DNA from: a virus
Lineage: Duplodnaviria; Heunggongvirae; Uroviricota; Caudoviricetes
Length of the DNA: 44,292 nt
Reading direction: 5' to 3' (one strand)
IMG/VR virus record: IMGVR_UViG_3300005573_001627
In this document: in pieces, positions 14,401 through 30,496 of the stretch
How the letters are laid out: each line of letters opens with the position of its first letter
Numbering within the stretch: position 1 is the stretch's first letter
The notes under the pieces: generated by a model
Told to the model about the DNA's origin: nothing
Seen by the model: only the letters and a program-made list of their open reading frames with translations
Database searches by the model: none
Translations under genes and position numbers: made by a program

Positions 14401-17400
14401 TAATAGATTGATTTAATAATCCAAGATTATATGTATTATTATTCACTGTATCATTGATTAAAGAAACATTTGCATTGGTTTCATTAAGTTCCCATCCAAA
14501 TGTTTGAACAGTTATATTCACTGAATTAATATTCATTACCAAGGTATCAATTATAGTATCAAGCAATTGGTCAAGGTAATACGTCCCAGTGGTCTTGTTT
14601 ACTTCACTAGTATTAATAAAAACAGAAATCAATCTGTATAAAGTTAAGTTCGCATCTATTGTTGTTTTATTATAGTAATCATTATTCAGGGAATTGTTTA
14701 TAGAAGTAAGATTTGCATAGACTTCATTGAACTGATTAGTCATATTAAGATTAGTCCAGTTAATATAATCTAAAAGAGTTGAATTCACAGAACTTAAGTT
14801 TGTATAGATTTCATTAATCTGATTTGTAAAATTAATTTGAAGAGCATTAACAGTATTATTGATGCCAGTCATATTATTGTAAATTTCAGTTATCTGATTT
14901 GTTAGGTTAAGATTTGTTTGAGTTATTGAAAGATTCAAAGCATATAAAGAATAATTTGTTGAAGCGTTTAAGTAACTTATATTTGTATAGATTTCATTAA
15001 CTTGATTTGTCAGATTCAAATTTGTTTCAGTTATAGATTGATTTAATGTTGAGAGATTTGCGTAGACTTCATTAATCTGATTTGTCAGATTTAAATTAGT
15101 ATCATTGATAGATTGATTCAACAAAGAAATATTGGCCATGATTTCGCTTACATGATTTGTAAGATTAAGATTTGTATCTCTGATAGAATCATTAATTACA
15201 GTAAGATTATATCTCGTCTCGTTAATATACTCACTGAAGTTTGTATAACCTGCATAATTTGAATAGTTACTAAAGTTAGAATAGTTAGATTCTCCTGCAG
15301 CATCTGCATAACCAGAGTAATGAGAATAATTACTGAAGTAAGAATAGTTAACAGTTGCATTGATTAGACTATCATTAACTTCGGTAATATTTGCATAGAC
15401 TTCATTGAATTGGTTTGTTACATTATTATTTGTATCTGTGATTGCTTGTGTTAAGGTAGAGTTAATATTGCTTACATTATTTGTGAGATTATTAACAATG
15501 TCGTTTACTAATGTAAGATTTGCATTTATCTCTCCAATCTGCCAGGATAAAGAACTGTTCACTGTTTGGATAGAAACATTTACAGTGTTTATATTAATAG
15601 CCAAAGTGTCGATAATAGTATCGAGAAGTTCATTAAGATAATAAGTTCCGGTTGTTTTATTTATCTCACTTGTATTAATCAAAACAGAAATCAATCTGTA
15701 TAAAGTCAGATTAGAATCGATTGTTGTTTTATTATAATAATTATTATTCAAGGAATTATTGATTGAAGTCATATTAGCATAGACTTCTACAAACTGATTT
15801 GTGAGATTAAGATTTGTTTCAGTTATAAGATTTAATAAGGTACTATTGACATTGCTTAAATTTGCGAATAATTCATTAATCTGATTTGTGAAATTAAGAC
15901 TGGTATTAATCAATGTTAGATTTACATAACTTATATTTGCATAGACTTCATTGAATTGATTAGTTAGGTTCAAGTTAGTATCAGTGATACTTTGATTGAT
16001 ACTGCTTACAGAATTATTAACTTCGCTGATATTAGCATAAAGTTCATTTACCTGATTAGTTAAATTCAGGTTAGTATCTCGAATAGAATTATTAAGCGCG
16101 CTCATATTAGCAGAGACTTCATTGAATTGATTTGTGAGATTAAGATTTGTTTCATTAAGGGTCTGATTAATCAAACTCAAGTTAGCCATTATCTCTGAAA
16201 CGTGATTTGTAAGATTAAGATTAGTTTGTTGAATTGATGTATTTAAAGAAGAAATATTAGAATAGACTTCGCTAAATTGATTGGTAAAGTTAAGATTAGT
16301 CTGAGTTATTGAATTATTAATTGCTGTGAGATTATACCTTGTTTCATTTATGTATTCAGTATAGTTAGAATAATTACTATAGTTTGCTTGGTTCGCTATA
16401 TCTACATATCCGGCATAAGAAGAATAATTACTAAAGTTTGAATAATTAGCATCTCCTGCCGTTGTAGCGTAATTAGAATAATTACTATAATTAGATTCCC
16501 CAGAAGTTACAGCATATTCAGCATATAAAGAGTAATTACTATAATAAGAAAAGTTAACTGTAGCATTTGCTAGACTTTCATTAACCTCACTTATATTAGC
16601 ATAGACTTCTGTAAATTGATTTGTAATATTGTTACTTAGATTAGTTATGGATTCAGTATTATTATTTACAGTCTCATTAATTAAACTTAAGTTAGCATTA
16701 GTCTCATTAATTTGCCAACCAAGAGAAGCATTTACACTTTGGATACTAAGATTTACTGTATTAATATTAATAGCCAAAGTATCTATAATAGTATCCAATA
16801 ATTGGTTAAGATAATAAGTTCCGCTAGTTTTGTTTACTTCACTAGTACTAATCAAGACAGAGATTAATCTATACAAGGTTAGATTAGAATCAATAGTGGT
16901 CTTGTTATAATAATCATTTTGGAGAGTATTATTCAAATAGTTAATATCATTAGTAAAAGTAATATTCATCTGAGAAAGGTTACCCCAAAGAGTTTCATTT
17001 ATTTCAGTAAGATTACCCCATAAAGTTTCATTAACTATCTCTACATAAATTGTAACATTTTCAACTGTTGAATTTATATAAGTACAATTGGTTCCATCGC
17101 TGTAACAAACATTTCCTGCAAAGACTTCAGTAAAGTTACCATAACCTATAGCGGTTATATTTCCATCAACAAGAACATTTGTATTAATAAACAAACCTTC
17201 CCCACTTAAATTCTGAAAGAACGCATCTGCTTGGAATGTTGCTTTACCATAGATAGTAGTAGAGTTACCCCAATCCTGTTGGAGTATTCCGTTGGCCCAA
17301 AGTTCTACTCTTTGTGTTGATTCATTATACATTATAAAACTACTTTGATTAGAAAAATGAATATCCCCCCCGCTTGGGATAGTTAACCTTGTTATATTCA

Positions 17401-19984
17401 TATTTGAAAAACTTGCATTAACATCGCTTGCATTAATATCCCCTCCGGTAACTAATAAACCACCGGTTATTTTTACAGGACTCCCTCCGATTATTGTTCC
17501 TCCAACAAATAAATCATTCACCACTTGAAGGCTATCAAATTTTCCGGAGCCATTAACATCTAATGTTGCTCCGGGATTTGGATTCTTAATTCCAACATCT
17601 CCATATACATCTACTATAACTGTATCTCCTTCATCAGTCCTTGTAACTGTAAAAGGATTTTGGCTGAACCCAGGATAACTATCATTAAATAATGGAAAAC
17701 CATTTTGGTAAATTTCATTAATTGTAGTATTATTTAAAACAATATTTTCTATTCCTACTTCATCGATATACCCTTTATAAAATTTTGTAATATCAGAACG
17801 CACACCAATGAACATACTAGTAGAAGTTCCTGCAAGCGAATCAATAGGAGTTTCAAGGGTTTGGTTTACTCCATTAATATATAAATTGATTACACCGTTA
17901 TCTACAGTACCAACAACAAAATACCAAGTGTTTAAACTCAGAGTTCCTGAACTTCTTTTCTGAACCGTACTTCCTCCTTGTTTAACCAAAAAGTGGATTT
18001 TGTCATTTGCTTTAACATAAAACATATATCCATTATTCAATGACCTATCATTATTTTTACTTACAATCCAATTATTATCTGATGACTGTGTTATATAAAT
18101 CCAAGCACTAATTGTAAAATTATCAGTAATATTTATTTGGGGAGCGTCATCAATGAACACATAACCTGTTCCGGTAAGAGACCCTAAAGAATAATTCCCT
18201 GTTCCATTACTCCCTTTGGATGCAGTATAATTATCAGTCTTAAGAAATCCTGTATTAAGATATCTAGAAGAATCAAAAGCGTCGGTTCCGTTTCCTTCTT
18301 CAAATCTATAACAAGCAGAAGAATTTTCGTGGCAAGTGACTACAGTAATATTAGTTGCATTTCCTTTTACTCTTGTTCCATTAACATTTAAGTTTCCTCC
18401 AATGTAAACATCTCCTATTGATTCAAGGGCACCAGTAGTTATATATGTAGAAGTTAAATTCCCAGTAGTAATATTTAATGCAGTTATGTTAGTTGCATTA
18501 ATATTTGCATTAACCCAAGAAGCAGTGAGATTATAATTTGCTAAATCAACATTATTAACTGCTCCAGTATATGGAACAAAAACTCCGGTTCCATTTGACC
18601 TTGCATCAATTGTAGAGTTTAAAGCGGTCTCATTAAAACTCACATTGTTATTAGCAACTGTAAGATATTTAGGAGTATCGGTCCCGGTGATAAAGTTATA
18701 GATATCATTCATTATTTTTGTAAAAATAGAAAGATTAAGATGATAATACTCGCTATCATTTCCTCCTTGAAGATTAGTTAAATTCTGATGAGAGATGTTT
18801 CCAAGGAAAGTATCTATCTGTGTGCTATTATAAGTTTCATTCCTGGGCATGGCCCATGGATGATTTGTTATTAAATCTCTGCCGCTTAAACTATCATGCT
18901 CTACATTAGTTATTGCTGTTGCTCCTTTTATTAATGCAGTGTAATCTATATGAAGTAGATGGCCTACAACACCTGGTTGAACATGCATCAATCTCATCTG
19001 AACAGTTTCATTTTGAATATGGGGTGCTGAATCTATTATAGGAAAATTAGAGAAGACAAAGTTAGATTCATCTGTGATTATAAAATAACTTTCCCAAGTG
19101 CTGGTGTTGTAATCCCAAATATCTACTTCTATCTCATGCCCAGCAGAACCAGTATACCATTGCCTTAAAAGAACATTATCAAATGAGGTAGTAACATTTG
19201 TAAAATTAATCAAGACTGTAATTGAATTTATTCCAGCTGCTTCTGAAACATTATAGTAATCTGTATCTACATATAATAAAGAAGTAAGGTTGCCTCCCGT
19301 ATTTGTTCCGGTAGTTGTAACAACACTTGTTGGTGGGTAATATATAGAAGCAGTTAAATCAAGGATAGTTTCATTAAGTTTTGTCTCATTAAGAATTATT
19401 GAAGTTGTATTATTATATAGATAAGGTGCGGCTCCGTCCTTTTGGTCGTATACTGATTGGGGGACATCTTGAATATATCCCCAAGTCATATTTGCATTAA
19501 CATATTCTGCAGTTAAATTATGTCCATCTAAATTCACATTCTGTGTAGAACCATTGTATGGAACATAAGTATCATTTCCTATTTGGCTGATTGTATTATT
19601 CAAAGCGGTTTCGTTGAAACTAACATTACTCCCATTTGTAGAGAGATATTTTGGAGTATCGGTTCCTGTAATAAAATTGTAAAGGTCTGTAATAATTTTA
19701 GAAAAGGCAGAAAGATTAAGATGATAATATTCTCCTGATGAACCTCCTTGAAGTCCAGCAAGAGAGTTATGAGCAATAGTAGAAATATTAATCGCCGTCG
19801 TATTAATGATTATAACTCCTTCAGTAATTCCTGTAGAATAAATTGTTTGGTTTCCCAAAACTTCTAGAGCACTAACTGATGGACAAAAGAAAAAAGAAAA
19901 AGAAACTAGTAAGATTAAAAATAAAGATAGGAGAATGAGAGACCTACTACTAAATGAATTTACATTTCTTGTAGAATCTCTCAT
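11450..19984 (-). CDS. Giant (2844 aa) Asn-rich fibre/adhesin with LamG-like domain and long repetitive coiled-coil stalk
   Basis: Signal peptide; LamG motifs (CYRFEEGNG, FTISAWIY, WYFVVGT, LYING, FYKGYIDEV) at about 17740-18325; two H-x-x-L-x-x-LQGG-x-x-x-EYYHL motifs; GGAGG RBS at 19994-19998. Confidence 0.85.
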   Translation of the reverse strand: MRDSTRNVNSFSSRSLILLSLFLILLVSFSFFFCPSVSALEVLGNQTIYSTGITEGVIIINTTAINISTIAHNSLAGLQGGSSGEYYHLNLSAFSKIITDLYNFITGTDTPKYLSTNGSNVSFNETALNNTISQIGNDTYVPYNGSTQNVNLDGHNLTAEYVNANMTWGYIQDVPQSVYDQKDGAAPYLYNNTTSIILNETKLNETILDLTASIYYPPTSVVTTTGTNTGGNLTSLLYVDTDYYNVSEAAGINSITVLINFTNVTTSFDNVLLRQWYTGSAGHEIEVDIWDYNTSTWESYFIITDESNFVFSNFPIIDSAPHIQNETVQMRLMHVQPGVVGHLLHIDYTALIKGATAITNVEHDSLSGRDLITNHPWAMPRNETYNSTQIDTFLGNISHQNLTNLQGGNDSEYYHLNLSIFTKIMNDIYNFITGTDTPKYLTVANNNVSFNETALNSTIDARSNGTGVFVPYTGAVNNVDLANYNLTASWVNANINATNITALNITTGNLTSTYITTGALESIGDVYIGGNLNVNGTRVKGNATNITVVTCHENSSACYRFEEGNGTDAFDSSRYLNTGFLKTDNYTASKGSNGTGNYSLGSLTGTGYVFIDDAPQINITDNFTISAWIYITQSSDNNWIVSKNNDRSLNNGYMFYVKANDKIHFLVKQGGSTVQKRSSGTLSLNTWYFVVGTVDNGVINLYINGVNQTLETPIDSLAGTSTSMFIGVRSDITKFYKGYIDEVGIENIVLNNTTINEIYQNGFPLFNDSYPGFSQNPFTVTRTDEGDTVIVDVYGDVGIKNPNPGATLDVNGSGKFDSLQVVNDLFVGGTIIGGSPVKITGGLLVTGGDINASDVNASFSNMNITRLTIPSGGDIHFSNQSSFIMYNESTQRVELWANGILQQDWGNSTTIYGKATFQADAFFQNLSGEGLFINTNVLVDGNITAIGYGNFTEVFAGNVCYSDGTNCTYINSTVENVTIYVEIVNETLWGNLTEINETLWGNLSQMNITFTNDINYLNNTLQNDYYNKTTIDSNLTLYRLISVLISTSEVNKTSGTYYLNQLLDTIIDTLAININTVNLSIQSVNASLGWQINETNANLSLINETVNNNTESITNLSNNITNQFTEVYANISEVNESLANATVNFSYYSNYSLYAEYAVTSGESNYSNYSNYATTAGDANYSNFSNYSSYAGYVDIANQANYSNYSNYTEYINETRYNLTAINNSITQTNLNFTNQFSEVYSNISSLNTSIQQTNLNLTNHVSEIMANLSLINQTLNETNLNLTNQFNEVSANMSALNNSIRDTNLNLTNQVNELYANISEVNNSVSSINQSITDTNLNLTNQFNEVYANISYVNLTLINTSLNFTNQINELFANLSNVNSTLLNLITETNLNLTNQFVEVYANMTSINNSLNNNYYNKTTIDSNLTLYRLISVLINTSEINKTTGTYYLNELLDTIIDTLAININTVNVSIQTVNSSLSWQIGEINANLTLVNDIVNNLTNNVSNINSTLTQAITDTNNNVTNQFNEVYANITEVNDSLINATVNYSYFSNYSHYSGYADAAGESNYSNFSNYSNYAGYTNFSEYINETRYNLTVINDSIRDTNLNLTNHVSEIMANISLLNQSINDTNLNLTNQINEVYANLSTLNQSITETNLNLTNQVNEIYTNISYLNASTNYSLYALNLSITQTNLNLTNQITEIYNNMTGINNTVNALQINFTNQINEIYTNLSSVNSTLLDYINWTNLNMTNQFNEVYANLTSINNSLNNDYYNKTTIDANLTLYRLISVFINTSEVNKTTGTYYLDQLLDTIIDTLVMNINSVNITVQTFGWELNETNANVSLINDTVNNNTYNLGLLNQSITDTNNNITNQFNEVYSNISEVNDSLINATVNYSYFSNYSNFAGYATSAGDVNYSNYSNFSEYINETRYNLTVINNTITQTNLNLTNQINEVYANLSEVNQSMIANDTYLQTQINETKANLTLINNTVNLIQANFTNQINELYANISLVNDSLNYSTYELNLSIQETNLNLTNQFQEVYANISLVQTNFTNQLNELYANLSLVNSTLLDYINWTNLNLTNQINEVYANLTELNNSINTLNDSLTNYYYNITTIEANFSNYYNKTTIDSNLTLYRLISVMINASEVNKTTGTYYLNGLLDSIIDTLAININTINLSIQEVNSTLNWRINETQANISLINNTANNNSQNIGTLNESISNLSLNVTNQFQEVYANISEVNDSIANATVNYSYFSNYSLFSNQAVTAESSNYSNFSGYATNAENANYSNFSNYSNNAGYAATAGESNYSNFSGYAEESNYSNFSNYSDYAGYANTSGESNYSNFSGYATSAGDVNYSNFSNYSYFANYTEYINEARYNLTTINYTISQTNLNLTNMINELYANLSSINQSMIENDTYLQVQINETKANLTSMNNTLNSAQLNFTNQLNELYANLSEINLTINYSDWALNQSLMYTNLNLTNQFTEVYANLTSMNNTLNFAQLNFTNQLNELYANLSSVNSTLLDYINWTNLNLTNQFNEVYSNLSSMNLTLNYAVQQISELLANFTLINNTINNITYNLTEYYVPYNNATKNLDLGSYNVSAESITTNTSVTTTANITSATITNLLGVVQAVIGTMNVTTGNIIDINSSIVSSTNAIISTVNSTTIYLTTLNVSDIFANMIYVNWLSAGNANITEANITVLNSSNITAISVSATTGSFDNIYNKSEVYNKTEVDAQQYAINVSAKVQSYSLNLTINTTGGSGNVTSSPLLGFLITEIRVTPSSLTSQYRFKATTGAGLVIDADRAVHTGIWDIEKNYAINDTFVANITNSNPTEENYTVTLIYLGNYG
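12300..16930 (-). repeat. About four 350-390 aa super-repeats plus a partial fifth in the fibre gene
   Basis: Marker YYNKTTIDxNLTLYRLISVxIxxSExNKTxGTYYL at about 16750-16920, 15585-15745, 14520-14680 and 13470-13630; interspersed TNLNLTNQxNExYANxS and YSNFSxYA units. Confidence 0.9.
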
Positions 19985-20001
19985 GTATTATTGACCTCCC
20001 T

Positions 20002-20232
20002 TTAAACTATTCCTGCTTGTCTCAATGAGCTGTAAGTAACTGCAATTCCTATTCCAAGAATACCTAGAGCGAAGAACCCTGGTACCATCTTAAGAACAGT
20101 TGCTCCCCAAGTTGTAGAGTTGTAAAGGTCTCCATTTGTCTCAGCAACATCGTTAACTTGCTGTGAGATAGGACCTACTAAGGAAACTCCGATTAATATT
20201 GAGACGAATCCACCTATAAGATTTGCTATCAT
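20002..20232 (-). CDS. Major capsid protein of spindle-shaped virus (SSV1 VP1-like)
   Basis: MIANLIGGFVSILIGVSLVGPISQQVN...NST...ATVLKMVPGFFALGILGIGIAVTYSSLRQ matches the fusellovirus VP1 pattern as I recall it (FILIGIVLLPVIVSQVN...ATLLNLVPLFY); two TM helices with a sequon in the loop; first gene after strong promoters. Confidence 0.8.
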   Translation of the reverse strand: MIANLIGGFVSILIGVSLVGPISQQVNDVAETNGDLYNSTTWGATVLKMVPGFFALGILGIGIAVTYSSLRQAGIV

Positions 20233-20275
20233 TTTGTATAAACATGGCCTCCTATAAATTATATACTCCAATGCT

Positions 20276-20293
20276 ATCTTTATAAATATAGTC
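20276..20293 (-). promoter_or_regulatory. Capsid-operon promoter box 1 GACTATATTTATAAAGAT
   Basis: Exact 18-bp repeat of 20338-20355; contains TTTATAAA. Confidence 0.7.
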
Positions 20294-20337
20294 TACTAAT
20301 CACTACTTTTGAATTACTAGTAGAAAAAGAAAGACTC

Positions 20338-20355
20338 ATCTTTATAAATATAGTC
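20338..20355 (-). promoter_or_regulatory. Capsid-operon promoter box 2 GACTATATTTATAAAGAT
   Basis: Exact 18-bp repeat, 62 bp from box 1. Confidence 0.65.
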
Positions 20356-20375
20356 CTCCGAAAAAAGAAGAAACA

Positions 20376-20383
20376 TTTATAAA
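20376..20383 (+). promoter_or_regulatory. TATA box for rightward operon
   Basis: TTTATAAA preceded by A-rich BRE-like GAAGAAACA, about 33 bp upstream of ATG 20416. Confidence 0.55.
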
Positions 20384-20415
20384 GAACTTTAGTCTGATTT
20401 ATTTGTCTAAAAGAG

Positions 20416-20598
20416 ATGAGTAAAGAAATTTTAATTCAGGTGAAAGTAAGCGGAAAAGGAATCGCGTCTGTTATAACTAAAAATGGATTCGATGATACAG
20501 CATCGTCTTCTCTGGAAGTTATAGGTATTCTACAAAATCTCTTGACGATAGAACAAGAAAAATTAAAGACTGTGTTAAAAGCACAGCAACCAATCTAA
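20416..20598 (+). CDS. Hypothetical protein (60 aa)
   Basis: ORF, TAATG coupling to the next gene. Confidence 0.7.
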   Translation: MSKEILIQVKVSGKGIASVITKNGFDDTASSSLEVIGILQNLLTIEQEKLKTVLKAQQPI

Positions 20599-21080
20599 TG
20601 GCATACTTTAGTCAATATCGAAAAGGAAATAAGAATGCATCTGCAACTCTTGATGCAGGACTGGGATTAATCTTTAGATTGAACACTCTTTGGAGAAGCG
20701 CAGACCTCGCTGCTCTTCGAGGAGAACTTGAAGAATACAATGATATCTTGAATCGAATTTTTGTAAACCTTCTTTATAAAACTCCGATGGATATTGAGTT
20801 TGAAAATAATCTAGAAAAAAAAGAAATAAAATCTGTTGACTGGAATGATGACGATGCAAAGATTTTTAATAAATTTAAAGAGATGGTCAGAGAGGTTAAG
20901 AAAAAAGAAACAGAGGCTATTAAAAAAAGAAATCGGTCTGCTTATAATTCTGCTAAGGAAGAGCATTATGAAATACTACTCAAGAAAGATACATGGCTAA
21001 GAAAGTTTATGATGGAGAAAGGATTGTACTTGAAAGAAGTTGAATTTAATCCCGAGACCGCGATGTGGGGTGGAATGTAA
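20598..21080 (+). CDS. Hypothetical helical protein (160 aa)
   Basis: ORF in the ATPase operon. Confidence 0.8.
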   Translation: MAYFSQYRKGNKNASATLDAGLGLIFRLNTLWRSADLAALRGELEEYNDILNRIFVNLLYKTPMDIEFENNLEKKEIKSVDWNDDDAKIFNKFKEMVREVKKKETEAIKKRNRSAYNSAKEEHYEILLKKDTWLRKFMMEKGLYLKEVEFNPETAMWGGM

Positions 21081-21121
21081 ATTATAATTGGTGATGAATC
21101 TAGGAAGAGAGAGGTGATAGA

Positions 21122-22192
21122 ATGTTAGATGAAAGAGATTATGTAGAAGAGAAAAGAATTAGAAGGACAGATGGCTCTAATCAAAATATTGATGCTTGGC
21201 GAAGGATAAATAAAGATATAGAAGAAGACGTAAGCATTCCGAAAGAGATAGAAGAAGACCAAGAGTTCTCTGTTGAAGAAGAGACTCCAGAAAGAATTAT
21301 TCAACAGCCTGAGAAAAAGAAAAAAAGGACTTCTGAAATCAGTGTTCTTGAAACCGGATTTACTGCTTCAAAGAAAGCGCCTCCTATCTCTCAAATTGAT
21401 GCAGGAACATCTGCAGACGTATCAAGTCCTAAACGTATCTATTATGCACAGAAACTAAATCCTGATTCTGAAAATGAATTGCCCAAGGTTGTTTTATCTG
21501 CAACACAAGAGAATCTACCAGACGGAGTTGCAAATCAATATGAAGAAACTACAATTACAATCAAGATTAATTTCTATAAAACTGATTGGGATAAAATATA
21601 CAGAGTCATTAAATCTCAAAGAGATACAATCAAACAATTTGCTAGACGCGCAATGGTTCAAGCAACAGATGAGATTCTTGAAAGAAATAAAATTAAGAAG
21701 AGACTTATAGAAGAACTTAGCCAAAGAGAAGTATTGGCAGAATTAAAAGAGAAGTTAACCAAAGAATTAATCGTTGAAAGAACTATTTGGCAATCAAGAT
21801 ATAAAGAACGAGACCCAGATGCTGTAAGATTATATCCGGAATTGAATGAAGAAGTCAAAAAAGACCTTGAAGAAGAAGAACAAGAAAAAGAACAATTGCT
21901 AAAACGTCTCCAAAGACTGGATGATAAAAGGACCAAGAAAGAAGCAAAAGAGGCCCGGGCCAGAGCAAGGGCCCTACAAAAACAGCCAGAGGATAATGAA
22001 AAAGAGATAGAAATGTCTGATGATATAGTTCAGGAAGACCTTGAAAATATGCAAAATGGCCCAGGACCATTAGAAGATTCTGCCCTAAATAATGGTATTG
22101 GATTTGATACAGAAGGAGTTATGCCGGAAGAAATATGTGAGGAGGTGATTTCTGATGTCAATGAGAGCGACGAACATCCGTTGGGTCAATAA
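21122..22192 (+). CDS. Acidic coiled-coil protein with possible ribbon-helix-helix segment
   Basis: GAGGTGA RBS; TITIKINFYKTDWDKIYRVIKSQRDTIKQFARRAM has a beta-helix-helix pattern. Confidence 0.7.
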   Translation: MLDERDYVEEKRIRRTDGSNQNIDAWRRINKDIEEDVSIPKEIEEDQEFSVEEETPERIIQQPEKKKKRTSEISVLETGFTASKKAPPISQIDAGTSADVSSPKRIYYAQKLNPDSENELPKVVLSATQENLPDGVANQYEETTITIKINFYKTDWDKIYRVIKSQRDTIKQFARRAMVQATDEILERNKIKKRLIEELSQREVLAELKEKLTKELIVERTIWQSRYKERDPDAVRLYPELNEEVKKDLEEEEQEKEQLLKRLQRLDDKRTKKEAKEARARARALQKQPEDNEKEIEMSDDIVQEDLENMQNGPGPLEDSALNNGIGFDTEGVMPEEICEEVISDVNESDEHPLGQ

Positions 22193-23138
22193 AAAAGGTG
22201 AACAGAGAATCGGATATTATATGGATGAGTTCTTAGGAATCAATCTGATGGGCATCCCTAACTATCTGAATAAGGCTTGGGATGTTGTTGGTATCATTTC
22301 AGGTCATGGAAAGGTACGTATAGGCAAGAGCACGCTCGCACAACAGATAGGATACTTCCTTGCGTGGCTGCTCGCAGGTGGGCGCATGGAGTCGCGCGTG
22401 GACCCGGACGGTGTTAAGCGTTGGTTTGTCGCGCGCGAGCCAAAGAAGCCGGTAAGATTTTCACTTGAAGAGAACATTGTATTCTCACCTGAGGACTTAA
22501 TGAAGTCCGCTTCAAATCTTAGAGACAAGTATGGGAGGAACCAAGTAATAATTTATGATGAAGGTAGGACTGGTCTTGACAGCGCGCGAGCAATGCAAGC
22601 AATCAACAAGGCGATGCAAGACTTCTTCCAGGAGTGCGGGCAGCACGGGCACATCATCCTTATAGTCTTACCAGATTTTTTCAAACTGCATGAGGACTAT
22701 GCGACGGTCCGTTCACTTTTTCTTGTCGATGTCTTCGCCGACCGACAACTTCGAAGAGGATGGTTCAACTTTTACAACGAAACACAGAAAGAAAAACTAT
22801 ATGTCTATGGAAAAAAAGTTTTGGGCCTGTACAATCGTTACTCGCAGGCGAGCCCGAGCTTCTACGGACGGTTCACATCGTTCTTGCCTATCGATGATAA
22901 GGCTTACGACCTCGCTAAACAGAAAGCACTCCGTAAAAAACAGTTCTTGAGGAATGAAAGACGATTCAAGAACCAAAGAGACGGTGCAATTTACCTTTTG
23001 AAGAGAGAAACAGACATGAGTTGTGAAGAAATCGCTACTGAACTCTCTGCGGTCACCCAACAACAGTTGTCTGAAGACCATATACGCAATGCAATCAAGT
23101 CTATCACGCATGAAAAGGATGAAGAAGAGATAATCTAG
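22155..23138 (+). CDS. P-loop ATPase with C-terminal HTH (morphogenesis/genome-extrusion ATPase typical of spindle-shaped and pleomorphic archaeal viruses)
   Basis: Walker A variant VGIISGHGKVRIGKST, Walker B VIIYDEG, C-terminal MSCEEIATELS HTH; GGAGGTGA RBS. Confidence 0.8.
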   Translation: MSMRATNIRWVNKKGEQRIGYYMDEFLGINLMGIPNYLNKAWDVVGIISGHGKVRIGKSTLAQQIGYFLAWLLAGGRMESRVDPDGVKRWFVAREPKKPVRFSLEENIVFSPEDLMKSASNLRDKYGRNQVIIYDEGRTGLDSARAMQAINKAMQDFFQECGQHGHIILIVLPDFFKLHEDYATVRSLFLVDVFADRQLRRGWFNFYNETQKEKLYVYGKKVLGLYNRYSQASPSFYGRFTSFLPIDDKAYDLAKQKALRKKQFLRNERRFKNQRDGAIYLLKRETDMSCEEIATELSAVTQQQLSEDHIRNAIKSITHEKDEEEII

Positions 23139-23667
23139 GTCTAATGTACGTACCGTCATGTACCTAAGTACCCTTTTTATGCGTAAAAATTTCATATAGC
23201 CAAGAGAAAAATAGGATTTTGGTTGTTTTTTCTACAAACCGACGGGCGGCCCCCCCAGCGGTAGGGTATTTATCATTACAATATATATTTTGGAGTATAA
23301 AAAAGGTGCAAAATAACCACTATGGGGGTACGAAAATGGTCATTTTGGGGCGCGCGGTCGTTTTTGGATGACCTTCCATATAGGTTCATCAGTCAGAATA
23401 GGGGTAGGGTCTCGGTTATTTGAAAGAATAACCCCTGCGCGGTATCAAAAACCGGCACTGGCTTGCCCAAGAAGATGCTGGGAGAATTATATAATCCAAG
23501 ATAACAAATTATATAAAGGCCAATCCCTTTAAAAGAATAAGATGTCTTCTTGTAGACATAACCAATAAACTAGATAGGCCCAATGCTATTATTATATAGC
23601 AGGATGATATTCGTATTTCCTCCAGGGCCTATCTACTTCTAATCTAATCAAGGATGCTTTTAAGATG

Positions 23668-23695
23668 CGTTCGTATTTCTCTTCTTATACGAAAG
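23668..23695 (+). other. lox/dif-like recombination site 1: CGTTCGTATTT-CTCTTC-TTATACGAAAG
   Basis: 11-6-11 imperfect inverted repeat; right arm identical to site 2; abuts the TATA box of the recombinase gene. Confidence 0.65.
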
Positions 23696-23696
23696 G

Positions 23697-23704
23697 TTTA
23701 TATA
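23697..23704 (+). promoter_or_regulatory. TATA box TTTATATA of the recombinase gene
   Basis: Preceded by GAAAGG (BRE-like); only TATA-like element just upstream of 23799. Confidence 0.55.
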
Positions 23705-23798
23705 TAAGTGTGCTTTGATTATCTCGTAAAACTTTCGCCATATCTATTTTGAAATGGCCCTATCACTGTGACAGTGACGTGACAGTGAGGAGCGCAGA

Positions 23799-24485
23799 TT
23801 GACAGAAGAAAAAAAGGTGCTAACAAAGAAAGAGTTGAAGAAGGCGTATGAAGCCGGACTTATTGATGAACAGAAATTCAAAGAGGAACTATTTCTAATA
23901 GAAACAACTAAACCAAAGCAGAGACAGAAAAAGAAATTGCCGGTTGCTTTAACTGAAGATGAATTTGGTAACTTGATACGAAACACCAAGAAGGACAGAT
24001 TCAAGTTAGCATTCTTATTTGGCTTTGGAGCCGGAATGAGATTGAGCGAGATTCTTGGAGGTGTGAGAGAGAACGGAGAGATAATGCCGCCGCTCACTGC
24101 AGACAAGATTGATATGCAAAGGAAGACTATTTATATAAAGGACGCCAAGGGAGGGAAGGACCGGATAGTTCCTGTGCCCAAGGGGTTGAAGATTGAACAT
24201 ATAAAGTTACTTCCACTTAACCAAGGGTACTCAAATATAAAGTCAGCAAGAAGAGCCTTTGAAATAGCGTTCAAAGTTGCTGCAGAACGTGCCGGACTAC
24301 TAAAGATTAAACCTGGACTTCACTTTCATAGTCTAAGACATAGTTTTGGTACACTGTTGGCAAATAGTGGTATGCCCATCCATCATATAAGAACATTGAT
24401 GGGCCATTCAAATATATCTACTACTAACATCTACTTAGAGGCCAATCCAAAGGATGCTTTGAAGAGTTATGAGGAATTGTTCTAG
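23799..24485 (+). CDS. Tyrosine recombinase (XerC/D-like catalytic domain, no core-binding domain)
   Basis: GMRLSE (R), KGGKDR (K), HSLRH (HxxR), MGH, TTNIY (Y); TTG start with GAGGAG RBS. Confidence 0.92.
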   Translation: MTEEKKVLTKKELKKAYEAGLIDEQKFKEELFLIETTKPKQRQKKKLPVALTEDEFGNLIRNTKKDRFKLAFLFGFGAGMRLSEILGGVRENGEIMPPLTADKIDMQRKTIYIKDAKGGKDRIVPVPKGLKIEHIKLLPLNQGYSNIKSARRAFEIAFKVAAERAGLLKIKPGLHFHSLRHSFGTLLANSGMPIHHIRTLMGHSNISTTNIYLEANPKDALKSYEELF

Positions 24486-24518
24486 GGCAAGCGAATAAAA
24501 AATAAGTTTTGCGAAAGA

Positions 24519-25060
24519 AATAGCCCTTTTTTAGCCCTTTTCCTATGTTAAACCTTTCGCATTTGATACCTTATACGAAAGCCGTTTCCTATAATGTATC
24601 GTCGATATAATATGGACTATATATGTGACTTTATAAGGATATTACGTTACTGTCACAGAAGCGAAAAATGAGCATATGAAGGCACATTAAAATAAGCCCT
24701 ATTTTGTCCTTAAAAGACCTTATTTAAGGGTTTATTTATACTTATTCGGTGAGGCGAAAATCAAGGCATTTATATGCCTTTATATAACACCCCTAAAAGG
24801 GCTAAAAAGGGCATTATTTGACATCCAGGCGCAGGCATCCTTTATACGTATTTTTAAGTATGGTTGAAAAGGGCATTATTTGACCTTAAATGCCTTGTTT
24901 TAGATGCAGGCATGGGTGTCAAAAAACGATTTTTTTCGTTTTTCCTGAAAGGATAATTTTTTGCATATTTTTTAATTATTTGCTATTTTTTGCCTATTTT
25001 TTGATAACAATAAGTGTTATCAATTAATTATCAAAAAATTACTACTAATTAGTGAAATAA
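24519..25060. other. Putative replication origin: AGGGC-core iteron-like repeats followed by phased T tracts
   Basis: 18-bp direct repeat AAAAGGGCATTATTTGAC at 24805-24822 and 24867-24884; inverted AGCCCTTTT copies at about 24522-24541 and 24695; palindrome AAGGCATTTATATGCCTT 24763-24780; AT-rich tract from about 24930. Confidence 0.45.
24554..24581 (+). other. lox/dif-like recombination site 2: CTTTCGCATTT-GATACC-TTATACGAAAG
   Basis: 11-6-11 imperfect inverted repeat 68 bp downstream of the recombinase stop; candidate attP/resolution site. Confidence 0.7.
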
Positions 25061-25310
25061 AAAGAGATTAAAAAGGGTTAAAAATCACTACTGCATAGTT
25101 AAATTTTATATGCAGAAAATTTAAAAAGATGGTTTATTTATCCTCTATAAGAAAAAAGGGGTTTAACTTCTTGTTTGATTTTAGCAAGAAGAAAAACAGA
25201 AAAACAAAAAAAGATTATTTTGTTTTTTCTTATTTTGTTTTATCTGTGATACTTTAATTAAATTTTTGGTTTTATGTTAAAAGGAGTAACATAAAATAAG
25301 TTTTAACAAA

Positions 25311-25625
25311 ATGGAATTTATACAAATAGAAGAAAAACTTTTTAATCTTTTGAATAATGCAAGAATAACAGAAAAAACAGCATACGATTTTAAACAACTA
25401 CTGCAAGATGTTAAAAAAAATTTTGGTTTAACATTAAGCAAACAATTTTTTTTAAATGGTTTAAACAGAACAGAACACAAGAGAATAAACACAAGAATAA
25501 ACAGGATAATAAAAAAAGCAGATATTCAAATAAAGAATACTTTTTATTATTATTCTGAATTGACAACAATAAAAGGTAATTTATGCAAAAACCTTTTAAG
25601 AAAAACTTTTAATCTTTTGGTTTAA
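25311..25625 (+). CDS. Hypothetical early protein (104 aa)
   Basis: ORF with GGAG RBS. Confidence 0.65.
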   Translation: MEFIQIEEKLFNLLNNARITEKTAYDFKQLLQDVKKNFGLTLSKQFFLNGLNRTEHKRINTRINRIIKKADIQIKNTFYYYSELTTIKGNLCKNLLRKTFNLLV

Positions 25626-25626
25626 A

Positions 25627-25833
25627 ATGAGAACAGAAAAATTTTATTTAAAATTTTGGAGTATGCAAGAACAACAACAAGAACAACAACAAACAAAAAA
25701 CTTTTTAGATAGTGAAAAAAATTTAAGCATAGAAGAATTAAATAAAAGATTAAAAGACAACGATATAAACAGCATAGAAAATAATAAACCTATTAAGAGA
25801 ATAATAAGGGTTATTTCTTCACATAACTATTAA
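25627..25833 (+). CDS. Hypothetical early protein (68 aa)
   Basis: ORF coupled to the upstream gene. Confidence 0.55.
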   Translation: MRTEKFYLKFWSMQEQQQEQQQTKNFLDSEKNLSIEELNKRLKDNDINSIENNKPIKRIIRVISSHNY

Positions 25834-25889
25834 ACTATTAATAGGTAAAAAAAGAGGTTTATTTTTTTTTAATAAAATGAATGCCTGCA

Positions 25890-25909
25890 AAAGTGTGTCA
25901 TTATCGTAC
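25890..25909 (+). promoter_or_regulatory. Early motif copy A AAAGTGTGTCATTATCGTAC
   Basis: One of 5 copies; followed by TTATTTATATA, ATG at 25939; T tract just upstream. Confidence 0.75.
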
Positions 25910-25938
25910 TTATTTATATAGGAGATTAAAAAAACAAA

Positions 25939-26301
25939 ATGGATAATACAGAATATTTTAAAAAAAAGTTATTGAAGATTATAAATAAAAATCTTAATGG
26001 TTTTACTATTGATTTTAATTTAAAACCAATAGAGAAAAAAAAGGGTTTTTTTGTTGGTATAACCAATAATAGCAATAAAGATTTTAATAAAGCAATAAAT
26101 AACCTTTTAAGCATTAAAGAAAAAATGTTTAAAAATTGTAAAAACCTTTATATTGGTGGTTGGTTGGATAATGAAACAAAAACCTATTTTTTAGATTTAA
26201 GCATTTATCTTAATAATAAACAAGATAGTTTAAACATAGCAAGATTATTTAATCAAAAAGCAATTTTTGATATAAAAAACCTTAATTGCATTAATGCTTA
26301 A
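25939..26301 (+). CDS. Hypothetical protein, possible SAM-lyase/DUF3293-like fold
   Basis: YIGGWLD...YFLDLS...SLNIARLFNQKAIFD; loose resemblance to T3 SAMase C-terminal motif; function unverified. Confidence 0.35.
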   Translation: MDNTEYFKKKLLKIINKNLNGFTIDFNLKPIEKKKGFFVGITNNSNKDFNKAINNLLSIKEKMFKNCKNLYIGGWLDNETKTYFLDLSIYLNNKQDSLNIARLFNQKAIFDIKNLNCINA

Positions 26302-26445
26302 AAATGGATATAAAACAATTAAAACCACAGCAAAAAGATTTTTTAAAATTGCTTAAATCCTCTAAAAACCCTTTTGATTTATGGGTTTATAATCAATTAA
26401 TAACAGCAATAAAAAAAGATAGCAATAAATAAAAGTTTTATTGAA

Positions 26446-26658
26446 TTGGATAAACATACTTTAATAGATAAAAAAAGGATTATGCTTAATATTGGAGATA
26501 AACTTAAAATTAATGATGTTATAACCTCTTTAATTATTGACTATGATTTAAACCTTTTAGAAGTAATTTATTTTAAGGGTTTTAATGAGAACAACAGCAA
26601 TTATTTTAAAGATAGATGTAGAGCAATTAATTTTATAGAGAGAGAGCAAGAAGAATAA
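26446..26658 (+). CDS. Hypothetical early protein (TTG start; ATG 26481 possible)
   Basis: ORF track. Confidence 0.5.
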   Translation: MDKHTLIDKKRIMLNIGDKLKINDVITSLIIDYDLNLLEVIYFKGFNENNSNYFKDRCRAINFIEREQEE

Positions 26659-26721
26659 AAGAGCAGAAAAATTTATTTTTTTTCTATTGTGAGTGCCTTG
26701 AGAGAGTACAGGCATTTAAAA

Positions 26722-26741
26722 AAAGTGTGTCTTTATCGTAC
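26722..26741 (+). promoter_or_regulatory. Early motif copy B AAAGTGTGTCTTTATCGTAC
   Basis: Tandem with copy C (44-bp period); not followed by TATA. Confidence 0.7.
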
Positions 26742-26765
26742 TATGGGGTAAAATTAGGTTATAAA

Positions 26766-26785
26766 AAAGTGTGTCTTTATCGTAC
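26766..26785 (+). promoter_or_regulatory. Early motif copy C AAAGTGTGTCTTTATCGTAC
   Basis: Followed by CTATTTATAA; ATG at 26815. Confidence 0.75.
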
Positions 26786-26814
26786 CTATTTATAAGGGAG
26801 ATTAAAAAAATAAA

Positions 26815-27243
26815 ATGGTTAAAAATATTAATGTTATTCAAGATTTTAGAGATTTAGAAAATACTGAAAATGCAGATAAAACAAGACACTTATTTATAGA
26901 AGATAATGTTTTATATTCTTATGGTTATCACTATCCTTTATGTATTAAACTAAAAAATGAGAGTGGTTATTTTTCTTTTTTTATAAATTCTGATGGTTAT
27001 AGCAATACAACAGCAAGACATACAGGCGACTTAATAAGAACTATTACAAGATTAAATAATTTTAAAGAATTAAAAGAAGCAAAGAAAAAAGGAGAATATA
27101 ACCATATTTTTCTTTTATCTACTGAACAATTAAAAAATATTCTTAATGATATTAAGTATAAGTTAAATAAAACCATTTCTCAAGCGACTATAAACGATTT
27201 ATCTTTATTGGAATTGGAAAAAGAGCAAGAGGTTTTAAAATGA
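26815..27243 (+). CDS. Hypothetical virus protein (LYSYGYHYP / YSNTTARH motifs)
   Basis: YS-x-TT-x-x-H motif is common in small phage early proteins; ATGA coupling. Confidence 0.75.
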   Translation: MVKNINVIQDFRDLENTENADKTRHLFIEDNVLYSYGYHYPLCIKLKNESGYFSFFINSDGYSNTTARHTGDLIRTITRLNNFKELKEAKKKGEYNHIFLLSTEQLKNILNDIKYKLNKTISQATINDLSLLELEKEQEVLK

Positions 27244-27494
27244 TTATAAACTATAAGATAATCGCAGAATTTAAAAATAAAACACAATTTTTAAAGGCAT
27301 TTAATACCTTATACAAACATTATAAGATTTATATGAAATTTAATCCTTATAATTATGAACTTTCTTTTGATGGTTTTTTAAATAAATATACTGCAAATAA
27401 TCTTATAAAAATTCTTCAGAAATTAGAGCATATTTCTTTAATTCTTTCTATTCAAAAAATAGAAACATACAACGAGGTTTTAACAGCAAAATGA
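27240..27494 (+). CDS. Hypothetical protein (84 aa)
   Basis: ATGA overlaps on both sides. Confidence 0.7.
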   Translation: MIINYKIIAEFKNKTQFLKAFNTLYKHYKIYMKFNPYNYELSFDGFLNKYTANNLIKILQKLEHISLILSIQKIETYNEVLTAK

Positions 27495-28021
27495 GATTAA
27501 CAGAAGAAGAAACAATAAAAATAAAAGTTTTGGGAGAGAACGAGAGCAACAGAATTTTAAATGCCTTGTTTCCAAAAATTCAAAACAGATTAAAAAACCT
27601 TGTTGGTATTAAGATTATAAAGGCAGATAATACTTTAATAAAAAGTTTAAAAGAAGAAATTGAGAGCATTATAAAAAGCGAGAGAGAGCAAAAAATACAG
27701 GCATTTAAACAAGAAGATTATGCAAACATAAGCAGTTTATATTTAAGTATAACCCCTTATTCTATTTCTTTAAAAATATCTTTATGTTTTAATGGTGGTA
27801 GTTATGAGGATAATTCTTATTATTGTATTTACCACGAAAATTATAAATATTTTGGAGAAATTAAAGACACAAAATTAAAAGAACTTTATAATATTGAGAT
27901 AAAACCCTCTTTAAATGCAGAAAAAGAAATAAGCAAGATTAAAAAATGTAAAGAGATTTTAAAAAATCTACAAGCAGAAAAAGAAAAACTGCCTTATTTT
28001 TTAAAGGATTTTGTAAAATGA
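27491..28021 (+). CDS. Hypothetical protein (176 aa)
   Basis: ATGA overlaps. Confidence 0.75.
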   Translation: MRLTEEETIKIKVLGENESNRILNALFPKIQNRLKNLVGIKIIKADNTLIKSLKEEIESIIKSEREQKIQAFKQEDYANISSLYLSITPYSISLKISLCFNGGSYEDNSYYCIYHENYKYFGEIKDTKLKELYNIEIKPSLNAEKEISKIKKCKEILKNLQAEKEKLPYFLKDFVK

Positions 28022-28191
28022 AAATGAAAAAAGAAATTATTGTTAATTGGAAAGATATAAAATCCATAGAGAGAGCAGAAAAGCAAAAAGCAAGATTAGA
28101 AAATGAGGGTTACACTTTTATTAAAACTGAAAAAATATCTTTTATAGATGATATTGATAAATCTATTTATGAAAAAAAATGCAAACAATAA
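28018..28191 (+). CDS. Hypothetical protein (57 aa, SIERAEKQKARLENEGY)
   Basis: Manual translation; fills the gap with an ATGA overlap. Confidence 0.65.
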   Translation: MKMKKEIIVNWKDIKSIERAEKQKARLENEGYTFIKTEKISFIDDIDKSIYEKKCKQ

Positions 28192-28775: not shown

Positions 28776-28777
28776 AA

Positions 28778-28945
28778 ATGGAAAGCCAAAAAATAACTTC
28801 TGAACAATTAAGAAATATGATTATTGCAGATTTTATAAGAGCATTATATCATAAAGACGAGATTATTGATACAGAAATGTTTATTGCAGATTTTTCTGAA
28901 ATTGTGGATAGTTATGTTAAATCAAAAAACGATTTAAAAAACTGA
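28778..28945 (+). CDS. Hypothetical protein (55 aa)
   Basis: Manual translation MESQKITSEQLRNMII...; fills gap. Confidence 0.6.
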   Translation: MESQKITSEQLRNMIIADFIRALYHKDEIIDTEMFIADFSEIVDSYVKSKNDLKN

Positions 28946-28947
28946 AA

Positions 28948-29229
28948 ATGTTACAAGAAACAAAAATAATGAAACAAGCGTTCATCAAGAGAACAGGCAA
29001 AAATCCTATTAAATTTAGGTTATGGGGTAAAGGCAGTATGCGAGGGTTTATTGATATAACAATACAGGGAAAAAAAGAAGATTATGAAATTCTGAACAAG
29101 AGCAGATTAATTGGAGATATTAAAATAACCTTTATTCAAAATCATACTTTTTTTAAAATTCCACAGATACAGATGGAAATTCATATTGGAGAATTTAAAA
29201 ATGAGTTATCAAGCACACGAGGAATTTAA
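28948..29229 (+). CDS. Hypothetical protein (93 aa)
   Basis: ORF track. Confidence 0.65.
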   Translation: MLQETKIMKQAFIKRTGKNPIKFRLWGKGSMRGFIDITIQGKKEDYEILNKSRLIGDIKITFIQNHTFFKIPQIQMEIHIGEFKNELSSTRGI

Positions 29230-30489: not shown

Positions 30490-30496
30490 AGCGAAA

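Follow-up and report, generated by a model that had tools for sequence, protein, structure and literature searches.

The window analysed here is the whole 44,292-nucleotide stretch of virus record IMGVR_UViG_3300005573_001627. At positions 20,002–20,232, on the minus strand, it carries an ATG-initiated gene for a 76-residue candidate major capsid protein, a hydrophobic alpha-helical hairpin of the SSV1 VP1/SSV19 VP1 type without the N-terminal propeptide. Hydrophobic helices span residues 2–31 and 41–73, and the loop between them contains an N-x-S/T sequon. An 89-residue form read from a TTG codon (to 20,271) is an over-call, because the capsid proteins of relatives are 76 residues long. The initial annotation, made from the letters of the DNA, had recognised the SSV1 VP1 pattern in this two-helix protein and proposed comparing it with VP1 by profile and by fold. 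That recognition is borne out. The protein matches PHROG families 11172 (2e-6) and 5402 (1e-5), both annotated as 'virion structural protein', and in a tblastn search of 50,697 phage records all 47 matches are fusellovirus VP1 genes, at 34–41% identity. SSV19 VP1 (7xdi_A) is the best match among PDB sequences (E = 0.003), and the family profile aligns with the mature part (residues 76–139) of the SSV1 VP1 precursor in hhalign (94.4%, E = 8.4e-8). When the AF2 model of the protein was compared with the PDB using Foldseek, SSV19 VP1 was again ranked first (TM 0.73/0.79, E = 0.14), superposing with an rmsd of 2.7 Å at 31% identity. Being short and hydrophobic, the protein gives modest individual E-values in the PDB sequence search and, despite the first rank, with Foldseek. 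On its own, the resemblance to His1 VP21 is weak. We conclude that the 76-residue protein is a true homologue of fusellovirus VP1, with a similarity beyond chance. Family members in relatives are 60–87% identical. A profile search of 1.84 billion proteins returned 402 clusters (50% identity) at E ≤ 0.001, and the profile also matches intermediates with a VP1-precursor-like N-terminal extension (~1e-17 to 1e-18). Looking for exact copies of the capsid gene in IMG/VR gave no match.

The capsid gene is separated from a plus-strand operon by a divergent, putative promoter region (20,233–20,415) containing two exact copies of CTTTATAAATATAGTC, at 20,278 and 20,340. This element has 4 matches at up to two mismatches against 0.22 expected, and the copies may represent an archaeal TATA-box-like element. 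The operon begins with a 60-residue protein for which no homologue was found (20,416–20,598), followed by a conserved 160-residue partner encoded 5' of the ATPase (20,598–21,080), which is a core gene of the family, and an acidic, coiled-coil-like protein of 356 residues that is not conserved in relatives (21,122–22,192). It ends with the second signature gene, for a P-loop ATPase of 327 residues (22,155–23,138). In most relatives the 160-residue partner lies directly upstream of the ATPase; here the 356-residue gene intervenes. The Walker A (GKVRIGKS) and Walker B (VIIYDE) motifs of the ATPase are invariant in 33 homologues and are followed by a C-terminal helical domain, in which a helix-turn-helix is plausible. 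An arrangement of the capsid gene divergent from a P-loop ATPase with a helix-turn-helix had been described at the outset: the divergence and the Walker motifs stand, whereas three genes lie in between and a helix-turn-helix is plausible. The suggested relationship to spindle-virus ATPases also holds in part. The protein is homologous to gp20 of Thermococcus prieurii virus 1 (TPV1; hhalign 95.5%, E = 1.4e-8, 187 columns), but the alignment with His1 ORF16 is not significant (30%) and there is no demonstrable similarity to SSV1 B251 (4%). For the 160-residue partner, comparison with TPV1 gp19 gave no similarity. Neither the single ATPase sequence nor its profile yielded anything useful from PDB sequences; the best PDB fold for its AF2 model (pLDDT 76) is the N-terminal domain of Zot (2r2a), a generic P-loop or Zot-like match. 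The ATPase family comprises at least 461 clusters at 90% identity. Spindle viruses are stated to have, as their signature module, a hydrophobic capsid protein together with an AAA+ ATPase (bioRxiv 10.1101/2025.02.15.638363), and the proposal that this pair marks such a virus is upheld, both proteins being homologous to spindle-virus proteins.

Directly downstream of the capsid gene, and like the other genes of this side on the minus strand, lies the gene for a secreted fibre or adhesin of 2844 residues (11,450–19,984) with a signal peptide, a Laminin_G_3 domain and 294 N-glycosylation sequons. It is followed by a secreted, sequon-rich protein of 743 residues (9213–11,444; 6.1 sequons per 100 residues) and by a conserved structural or assembly block of family core genes (6972–9161), encoding proteins of 221 residues (signal peptide and a transmembrane segment), 161 residues, 248 residues (C-terminal transmembrane segment) and 80 residues. 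A 1738-residue protein (1264–6480), in which conservation is confined to the C-terminal part, is probably internal, because it has no transmembrane segment and almost no sequons (0.1 per 100 residues). Beyond it, a conserved 104-residue protein (933–1247) forms a second hairpin of two transmembrane segments, with a Cys and a sequon in the loop, and is a candidate minor capsid or membrane protein. The window opens within the gene for a 4451-residue protein with several Laminin_G_3 domains, of which the N-terminal 303 residues are encoded at 1–909 and the remainder to the left of the window; homologues of its N-terminal part are named Pacearchaeota.

To the right of the ATPase, a GC-rich spacer of 660 bp (23,139–23,798) contained no tRNA, Rfam family or fold signal (z = −0.43). 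A TTG-initiated tyrosine recombinase of 228 residues follows on the plus strand (23,799–24,485; Pfam Phage_integrase 1.2e-23, PHROG integrase), homologues of which, at 41–44% identity, are encoded near the ATPase gene in Nanoarchaeia contigs. The remainder is a variable accessory or 'early' arm of small co-directional plus-strand genes (25,311–44,196; GC 23–30%), including a DNA ligase (31,532–32,344), a MoxR-like ATPase (32,397–33,524) and a DUF2201 peptidase-vWA protein (34,662–35,951). Only the ligase and a 201-residue gene (29,884–30,489) are common to some relatives. This arm had been likened to the early region of tailed phages. Hallmarks of tailed phages are absent from it, and its closer counterpart is the variable 'enzymatic arm' described for ANME-1 spindle viruses with large genomes (PMC9894754).

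That more than 44 kb are present without reaching either end proved correct, as the window is an internal part of ENA contig k141_1616633 (169,466 bp). An independent assembly, Logan contig SRR5248875_4861 (129,654 bp), carries window positions 19,362–31,999 at its positions 129,626–116,990 and, at 967–1488, the gene of ENA 50.7–51.2 kb. It bridges both ends of k141_1616633, and the genome is therefore a circle, for which arithmetic gives 169,325 bp; the contig exceeds this by exactly 141 bp, the k of the assembler. Among the reads, short junctions and loose ends with sides of 20–28 nt have the look of repeats or of other organisms and were set aside. The same core occurs in relatives that include complete circles of 40.8 and 46.4 kb and an 86.6-kb near-circle (G001), so that the conserved core spans genomes of 41–169 kb. 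The complete relatives G003 and G004 have 127-bp terminal repeats. Inspection covered 67% of the genome (114 kb, ENA 12–126 kb). Pfam and PHROGs profiles for HK97 capsid, large terminase and portal had no match in the window, ENA 12–126 kb, G001, G003 or G004, by which Caudoviricetes is rejected. A search for HK97 or double jelly-roll capsid genes elsewhere on the contig had been advised, and no other capsid type was found in ENA 12–126 kb or the complete relatives. The 76-residue gene is thus the only recognisable capsid gene of the 169-kb genome, of which about 67% was inspected.

Host assignment draws on binning and gene sharing, which point to a probable DPANN host of the class Nanoarchaeia (Pace-/Woesearchaeota-like). 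A Pacearchaeota bin carries the capsid gene at 82% identity, the ATPase is present in a Nanoarchaeia bin, and some Nanoarchaeia contigs carry the partner gene, the ATPase and a 72–73-residue capsid gene side by side. Matches to the ATPase profile were obtained in 8 of 401 Nanoarchaeia genomes compared with 0 of 401 Nitrososphaeria genomes. Further bins containing the capsid or ATPase family are labelled Nitrososphaerales, Elusimicrobiales and Mycoplasmatota, so that bacterial labels are among them. A set of 665 contigs (0.57 Mb) carrying window 19.7–26.6 kb at 100% was left out of the host evidence. One NCBI bin label suggested ammonia oxidisers as hosts, which the Nitrososphaeria count contradicts. 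The Pacearchaeota/Woesearchaeota-like host proposed initially is hence the best-supported guess. As had also been remarked, the window holds no host marker, and none was found in ENA 12–126 kb or the complete relatives.

Spindle-shaped viruses are specific to archaea and have no assigned realm. The window has two features of the informal assemblage with an SSV1/His1-type capsid, namely a small VP1-homologous capsid protein with two hydrophobic helices (about 70–90 residues when mature) and a P-loop ATPase near the capsid gene, here the homologue of TPV1 gp20. With the Fuselloviridae (SSV1, SSV19) the virus shares the homologous capsid protein, the loop sequon, a large fibre gene nearby, a tyrosine recombinase and circular dsDNA, and the duplication of the capsid gene in its relatives recalls VP1/VP3. 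However, fusellovirus genomes are 13–24 kb in length against the circle of 169,325 bp; the present capsid protein lacks the N-terminal propeptide, the GC content is low, and DPANN archaea rather than Sulfolobales are the probable hosts. When all window proteins were compared with SSV1 by tblastn only VP1 was matched, and none of the other SSV core genes (the B251 DnaA-like ATPase, VP4/C792 and others); genome size and the lack of any core gene besides VP1 reject membership in this family. TPV1 and its relative PAV1 are spindle-shaped viruses of Thermococcales. In addition to the homologous ATPase, TPV1 has an integrase, and large proteins with ConA/LamG-type lectin domains adjoin its structural genes. 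The TPV1 genome measures only 21.6 kb, an unrelated protein is encoded upstream of the ATPase, and TPV1 yielded no match for the window capsid, only a weak one with the copy of one relative (E = 0.005).

Among larger genomes, the spindle viruses predicted for ANME-1 archaea, which include Pletoitzamnavirus and the incomplete 72.6-kb tepeuvirus PBV144, combine a structural arm with a variable enzymatic arm, the structural half being common to related genomes that differ greatly in size (PMC9894754). By that description they have a hydrophobic alpha-helical capsid protein and a large two-arm genome in common with the present virus (PMC9894754), but the largest is less than half its size and theirs carry an RNA-primed PolB. 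The Nipumfusiviridae (NYM1, BK067792), putative spindle viruses of ammonia-oxidising archaea with genomes of 27–38 kb, are likewise metagenomic, low in GC and equipped with a small two-helix capsid protein and an ATPase. G001 and NYM1 have a few accessory genes in common (53% identity over 178 residues), but neither the capsid protein nor the ATPase of NYM1 is detectably similar to that of the window, and with the ATPase family absent from all 401 Nitrososphaeria genomes membership is rejected here too. The large-tailed spindle viruses (Bicaudaviridae, STSV1/2, SMV1) have genomes of up to about 76 kb, the largest known for a spindle virus. Large genomes are common to both, packed in spindle capsids there and predicted to be so here; their capsid proteins gave no match to the window capsid in the collection of 50,697 phage records, and the closest capsid match is of the small-spindle VP1 type. 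DPANN virus families have been described by Wu, Liu and Ni (2024; Nat Microbiol 9:3362), according to PMC13573593. Because no described family among those compared by sequence (Fuselloviridae, Nipumfusiviridae, Bicaudaviridae and Caudoviricetes, together with TPV1) was matched, the 'undescribed family' of the initial annotation is a fair reading, apparently one whose structural arm is conserved and whose accessory arm varies strongly.

Taken together, we favour, with a probability of about 0.7, the reading in which a complete circular dsDNA virus of ~169.3 kb, from an uncultured hot-spring archaeon, has its morphogenetic core in the window; the capsid would be of the VP1 type, the family apparently undescribed and the host most likely a DPANN archaeon of the Nanoarchaeia. 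By analogy with the solved capsids of SSV19 and SMV1, many copies of the 76-residue protein would pack side by side into helical strands, giving a lemon- or spindle-like shell that can grow with the genome, and the loop with its conserved N-glycosylation sequon would face outward. The 160-residue protein and the P-loop ATPase may act in genome handling or assembly, as the homology to the TPV1 and His1 ATPases suggests. The giant, sequon-dense secreted LamG proteins (2844, 743 and 4451 residues) would be terminal fibres or adhesins, which could be decorated by the products of a glycosylation cluster of ~20 kb elsewhere in the 169-kb genome.

The circle might instead be a megaplasmid or other extrachromosomal element carrying a captured or integrated spindle virus of ~40 kb, with only the small virus forming particles. 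The complete relatives with the same core are just 41–46 kb, the core is bordered by a tyrosine recombinase, GC falls from 0.35–0.42 to 0.23–0.30 just right of that border, and the right arm has almost no homologues in relatives. We nevertheless consider this unlikely. A search for att-like direct repeats shared by the integrase region and the remainder of ENA 40.6–126 kb gave only 14–16-nt matches at chance level. In G001 the structural arm is split over both contig ends, with gene order as in the window, and large size therefore recurs in the family; contigs of 50–200 kb in at least four assemblies carry the same genes. Moreover, the right-arm ligase and 201-residue gene are linked to the core in G002, G003 and L007, and the glycosylation cluster fits the sequon-dense fibres.

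A virus with a VP1-type protein need not be spindle-shaped, and the particle could be rod-like, bacilliform or pleomorphic. The helix-hairpin fold also builds the bacilliform APBV1, and rods were considered too in related metagenomic work, in which, on the other side, capsid volume scales with genome size and larger genomes are argued to favour spindles (PMC10866085). The closest match in both sequence and fold is a true spindle virus, and a different shape appears about as improbable as the megaplasmid. By analogy from one small protein, the virion would be expected to have a spindle or lemon shape. That an HK97 or jelly-roll protein encoded elsewhere forms the actual capsid and has escaped recognition, with the 76-residue protein an accessory membrane protein, seems more doubtful still: several open reading frames of 300–550 residues are without annotation and a third of the circle lies beyond the inspected part, but two complete relatives and 114 kb of the 169-kb genome are free of capsid, portal and terminase families, and the 76-residue gene is the most conserved of the family, often present in tandem copies beside fibre genes. 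Short proteins with two transmembrane segments are common and low-complexity hydrophobic similarity can mislead, yet a host-type small membrane protein or pilin in a non-viral element is very improbable, given that every database match is a spindle-virus virion protein, that the gene sits with a homologue of a spindle-virus ATPase and that the family is rare in cellular genomes (2 loci in 185,579 species genomes).

Under the favoured reading of a complete 169-kb virus, the known packaging range of the VP1-type capsid would be more than doubled, the largest described genome that we found for this capsid type being 72.6 kb (PMC9894754). By our scaling estimate, packing 169 kb into a lemon-shaped shell takes a particle of ~130 × 220 nm, awkwardly close to half of a typical DPANN cell's diameter. 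On current models, a spindle capsid can expand through the sliding of strands made of a single tiny protein, and a 169-kb genome with a VP1-type capsid would make the scaling model directly testable. It would further mean that 'jumbo' viruses outside the tailed lineages occur in DPANN archaea, whose genomes are ~1 Mb, and the joining of the same structural arm to accessory arms of 20–130 kb would be a natural experiment in viral genome expansion. More tentatively, and a little short of an even chance in our judgement, this could be the largest genome known with an SSV1-type helix-hairpin capsid, a 169-kb circular virus of ultrasmall DPANN archaea with four giant fibre proteins and its own N-glycosylation pathway, oligosaccharyltransferase included, in a new family with a four-fold size range. 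In that case the particle would take up a considerable part of the host cell's dimensions, and the genome would amount to roughly 15–25% of the host's. The oligosaccharyltransferase in question is the AglB/STT3-like enzyme of the ~20-kb glycosylation cluster, whose STT3/AglB core match scores 27.6 bits against a cut-off of 23; if this is confirmed, the virus would be unusual in supplying N-glycosylation machinery of its own.

The capsid gene (20002–20232, minus strand) encodes a 76-residue protein from an ATG start; an 89-residue form with a TTG start was rejected as an over-call because the relatives are called at 76 residues. A Pfam search with the protein gave no match, and in PHROGs it matched two 'virion structural protein' families (2e-6 and 1e-5), the better match covering positions 69–133 of a 137-position profile and corresponding to the mature portion of a VP1 precursor. 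All 47 tblastn hits among 50,697 phage records were fusellovirus VP1 genes (34–41% identity over 93% of the query), and the top PDB sequence match was SSV19 VP1 (7xdi_A, E 0.003). A family profile built from 13 members aligned with residues 76–139 of SSV1 VP1 at 94.4% probability (E 8.4e-8) and weakly with His1 VP21, with no match to the capsid protein of the nipumfusivirus NYM1. AF2 predicts a hairpin of two helices (pLDDT 78), for which Foldseek ranked SSV19 VP1 first among 350,542 PDB chains (TM 0.73/0.79, rmsd 2.7 Å, 31% identity). Exhaustive searching with the profile returned 402 clusters at E≤0.001, many of them 134–150 residues long and matching by their C-terminal half alone, like the VP1 precursor. 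PHROGs, tblastn, profile alignment and fold match all point to VP1, as the initial annotation had proposed for this protein.

Among the relatives the capsid helices are nearly invariant, and the loop is variable but retains an N-x-S/T sequon. Tandem arrays of two or three copies are frequent (L001:10241–10498, L003:10248–10529, L004:783–1064 and L007:11125–12698). The helices of these copies are near-identical, and some copies carry loop insertions of 10–18 residues with additional sequons and a pair of cysteines, a pattern that resembles diversification of an exposed loop.

The ATPase is the last product of a plus-strand operon, called as ORFs of 60, 160, 356 and 327 residues and ending at 23138. 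Its Walker A and Walker B residues are invariant across 33 homologues, and the family, clustered at 90% identity, comprises 461 or more clusters, all unnamed. The family profile matched the spindle-virus ATPase TPV1 gp20 at 95.5% (E 1.4e-8, 187 columns), compared with 30% for His1 ORF16, 8% for the NYM1 ATPase and 4% for SSV1 B251. The AF2 model (pLDDT 76) yields generic ASCE P-loop fold matches, the best being the Zot N-terminal domain, and three C-terminal helices may form an HTH by analogy with the annotation of His1 ORF16. Of the P-loop and HTH ATPase described initially, the P-loop part therefore stands and the HTH part is possible; kinship with SSV1 B251, which had been suggested as a check, did not emerge, and that with TPV1 gp20 did. 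A capsid protein paired with an AAA+ ATPase is the stated signature module of spindle viruses (bioRxiv 10.1101/2025.02.15.638363), in agreement with its earlier use here as a hallmark. We confirm the observation of the two genes and find the interpretation as a large spindle-type archaeal virus supported, with the virion shape, the ATPase function and the host inferred.

The capsid gene and the ATPase operon are separated by 183 bp, in which a TATA-like 16-nt element occurs in two exact copies, CTTTATAAATATAGTC (20278–20293 and 20340–20355). With one or two mismatches the element recurs at 6916–6931 and 24125–24140 (minus strand), giving four occurrences against 0.22 expected, and it is probably a promoter box common to several units.

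Exact-protein look-ups placed the window at about 72,489–116,780 of ENA contig k141_1616633 (169,466 bp). A Logan contig of 129,654 bp from a hot-spring run carries window positions 19362–31999 on its minus strand (129,626–116,990) and, at 967–1488, a gene from ENA 50,664–51,185. These two anchors are compatible only with a circle, and the genome is therefore circular with a length of 169,325 bp. This is shorter than the ENA contig by exactly 141 bp, the assembler k-mer; together with the Logan anchors, it indicates that the ends of the ENA contig overlap and are bridged by an independent assembly. A contig of 169,557 bp also carries the 4451-residue giant protein. The window, noted at the outset to exceed 44 kb with neither end reached, is accordingly an internal part of a far larger genome.

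The minus-strand genes downstream of the capsid gene come in the order: a 2844-residue protein with a signal peptide, a LamG domain and 294 sequons (10.3 per 100 residues); a 743-residue secreted protein; a conserved block of 221, 161, 248 and 80 residues; a 1738-residue sequon-free protein; a 104-residue two-TM hairpin (933–1247); and the start of the 4451-residue protein (1–909, continuing into L176:10001–23356), which has at least three Laminin_G_3 domains and whose ORF crosses the left edge of the window. The 4451-, 2844-, 1738- and 743-residue proteins together occupy ~29 kb of the genome. The hairpin belongs to a second two-TM family of 80–104 residues with a Cys-containing loop (933–1247; L048:60–561; L049:13617–14125). 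In this genome, as in distant relatives from Nanoarchaeia bins, it adjoins a large sequon-free protein, and it may be a minor capsid component.

The ATPase gene is followed on its right by a tyrosine recombinase gene and ~19 kb of small plus-strand genes (GC 0.23–0.30), among them those for a DNA ligase, a MoxR-like ATPase and a DUF2201 peptidase-vWA protein. Neither a tRNA gene nor a capsid, portal or terminase family was found in the window. A 660-bp gene-free spacer separates the ATPase from the recombinase (23139–23798) and is far more G+C-rich than its flanks, with G/C runs; tRNA, Rfam and fold-signal searches of it were all empty. It may contain the site of the recombinase. No att-like repeats flanking the core were found.

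A genome walk over ENA 11,959–126,018 (67% of the genome) revealed neither host markers, ribosomal ones included, nor a further candidate for the capsid gene. Left of the giant genes are small ORFs with no assigned function and then a glycosylation cluster of ~20 kb (L181:292–20269 and L182:10001–21167; about 22–41 kb of the ENA contig). The cluster encodes several GT1/GT2/GT4 glycosyltransferases, a DegT aminotransferase, epimerases/dehydratases, a UDP-GlcNAc 2-epimerase, a deacetylase, methyl- and acetyltransferases and an asparagine-synthase-like protein. It further encodes a 923-residue protein (L181:1443–4214) that exceeds the Pfam cut-off for the STT3/PglB/AglB core (27.6 versus 23 bits) and may be a virus-encoded oligosaccharyltransferase. 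Elsewhere, a 343-residue protein with PolyA_pol, RNA-binding and HD domains (L171:17663–18694, ENA about 123–124 kb) has the architecture of a bacterial class II CCA-adding enzyme, which is unexpected for an archaeal virus.

IMG/VR contains relatives on contigs of 86.6, 46.4, 40.8 and 36.6 kb. Their capsid genes are 61–78% identical, a value that reaches 87% among JGI and NCBI contigs, and their ATPases are 42–49% identical. The 46.4- and 40.8-kb contigs have 127-bp terminal repeats and are therefore complete circles. The capsid gene, the 160-residue protein with the ATPase, and the 221/161/248/80-residue block are present on all four, and the 104-residue hairpin on three, being absent from the 86.6-kb contig. 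Fibres are only partly common to these relatives; the ligase and a 201-residue gene occur on two, and the remainder of the window's right arm on none. The structural arm of the 86.6-kb contig is divided between the two contig ends in the window's order, indicating a circle broken within the giant gene; other genes on this contig encode MCM, ParB, a resolvase, DNA methylases, HNH nucleases and glycosylation enzymes. The two complete genomes encode methylases, a D5-like primase-helicase, integrases, SPFH, a ligase and a TnpB-like protein, and no HK97, portal or terminase family was matched in these three sequences. A 109.7-kb JGI contig carries a ligase, an integrase, the ATPase, three capsid genes and a giant protein. 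NYM1, which is attributed to ammonia oxidisers, shares with the 86.6-kb relative a 193-residue protein at 53% identity (L029:30242–30775 in NYM1, L023:7051–7632 in the relative) and two further genes, whereas the core genes are unrelated.

The ICTV families Fuselloviridae, Halspiviridae and Thaspiviridae were joined in 2025 by Nipumfusiviridae, Huangdiviridae and Eurekaviridae (PMC12451623). Nipumfusiviridae genomes are 27–38 kb (PMC10866085), and the largest predicted spindle genomes that we found in the literature are those of tepeuvirus PBV144 (72.6 kb, incomplete) and the itzamnaviruses, likewise divided into structural and enzymatic arms (PMC9894754). The preprint bioRxiv 10.1101/2025.02.15.638363 states that its nanohaloarchaeal spindle viruses are the first to be described. 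Our literature search found no description of a genome of ~169 kb with a VP1-type capsid protein. Some spindle-shaped DPANN viruses were reportedly among those of Wu, Liu and Ni (Nature Microbiology, 2024, on DPANN viruses), so the present family, first proposed as undescribed, may be partly described there.

Close relatives occur in five bins, labelled Pacearchaeota, Nanoarchaeia, Nitrososphaerales, Elusimicrobiales and Mycoplasmatota; the capsid gene of the Pacearchaeota-labelled bin is 82% identical. The ATPase profile found 8 of 401 Nanoarchaeia-class genomes versus none of 401 Nitrososphaeria-class genomes, and on three Nanoarchaeia contigs a distant gene for the 160-residue partner, the ATPase gene and a 72–73-residue capsid gene are adjacent. 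Some homologues of the giant protein's N-terminus are named Pacearchaeota, and others lie on contigs of 0.5–0.8 Mb. We consider a DPANN archaeon the probable host, at somewhat better than even odds. DNA of the window was found in hot-spring metagenomes. Window positions 19697–26604, spanning capsid, ATPase and recombinase, are also present at 100% identity in a data set of 665 contigs, totalling 0.57 Mb, that is registered under one organism name; if this is a single-cell genome, the host would be named.
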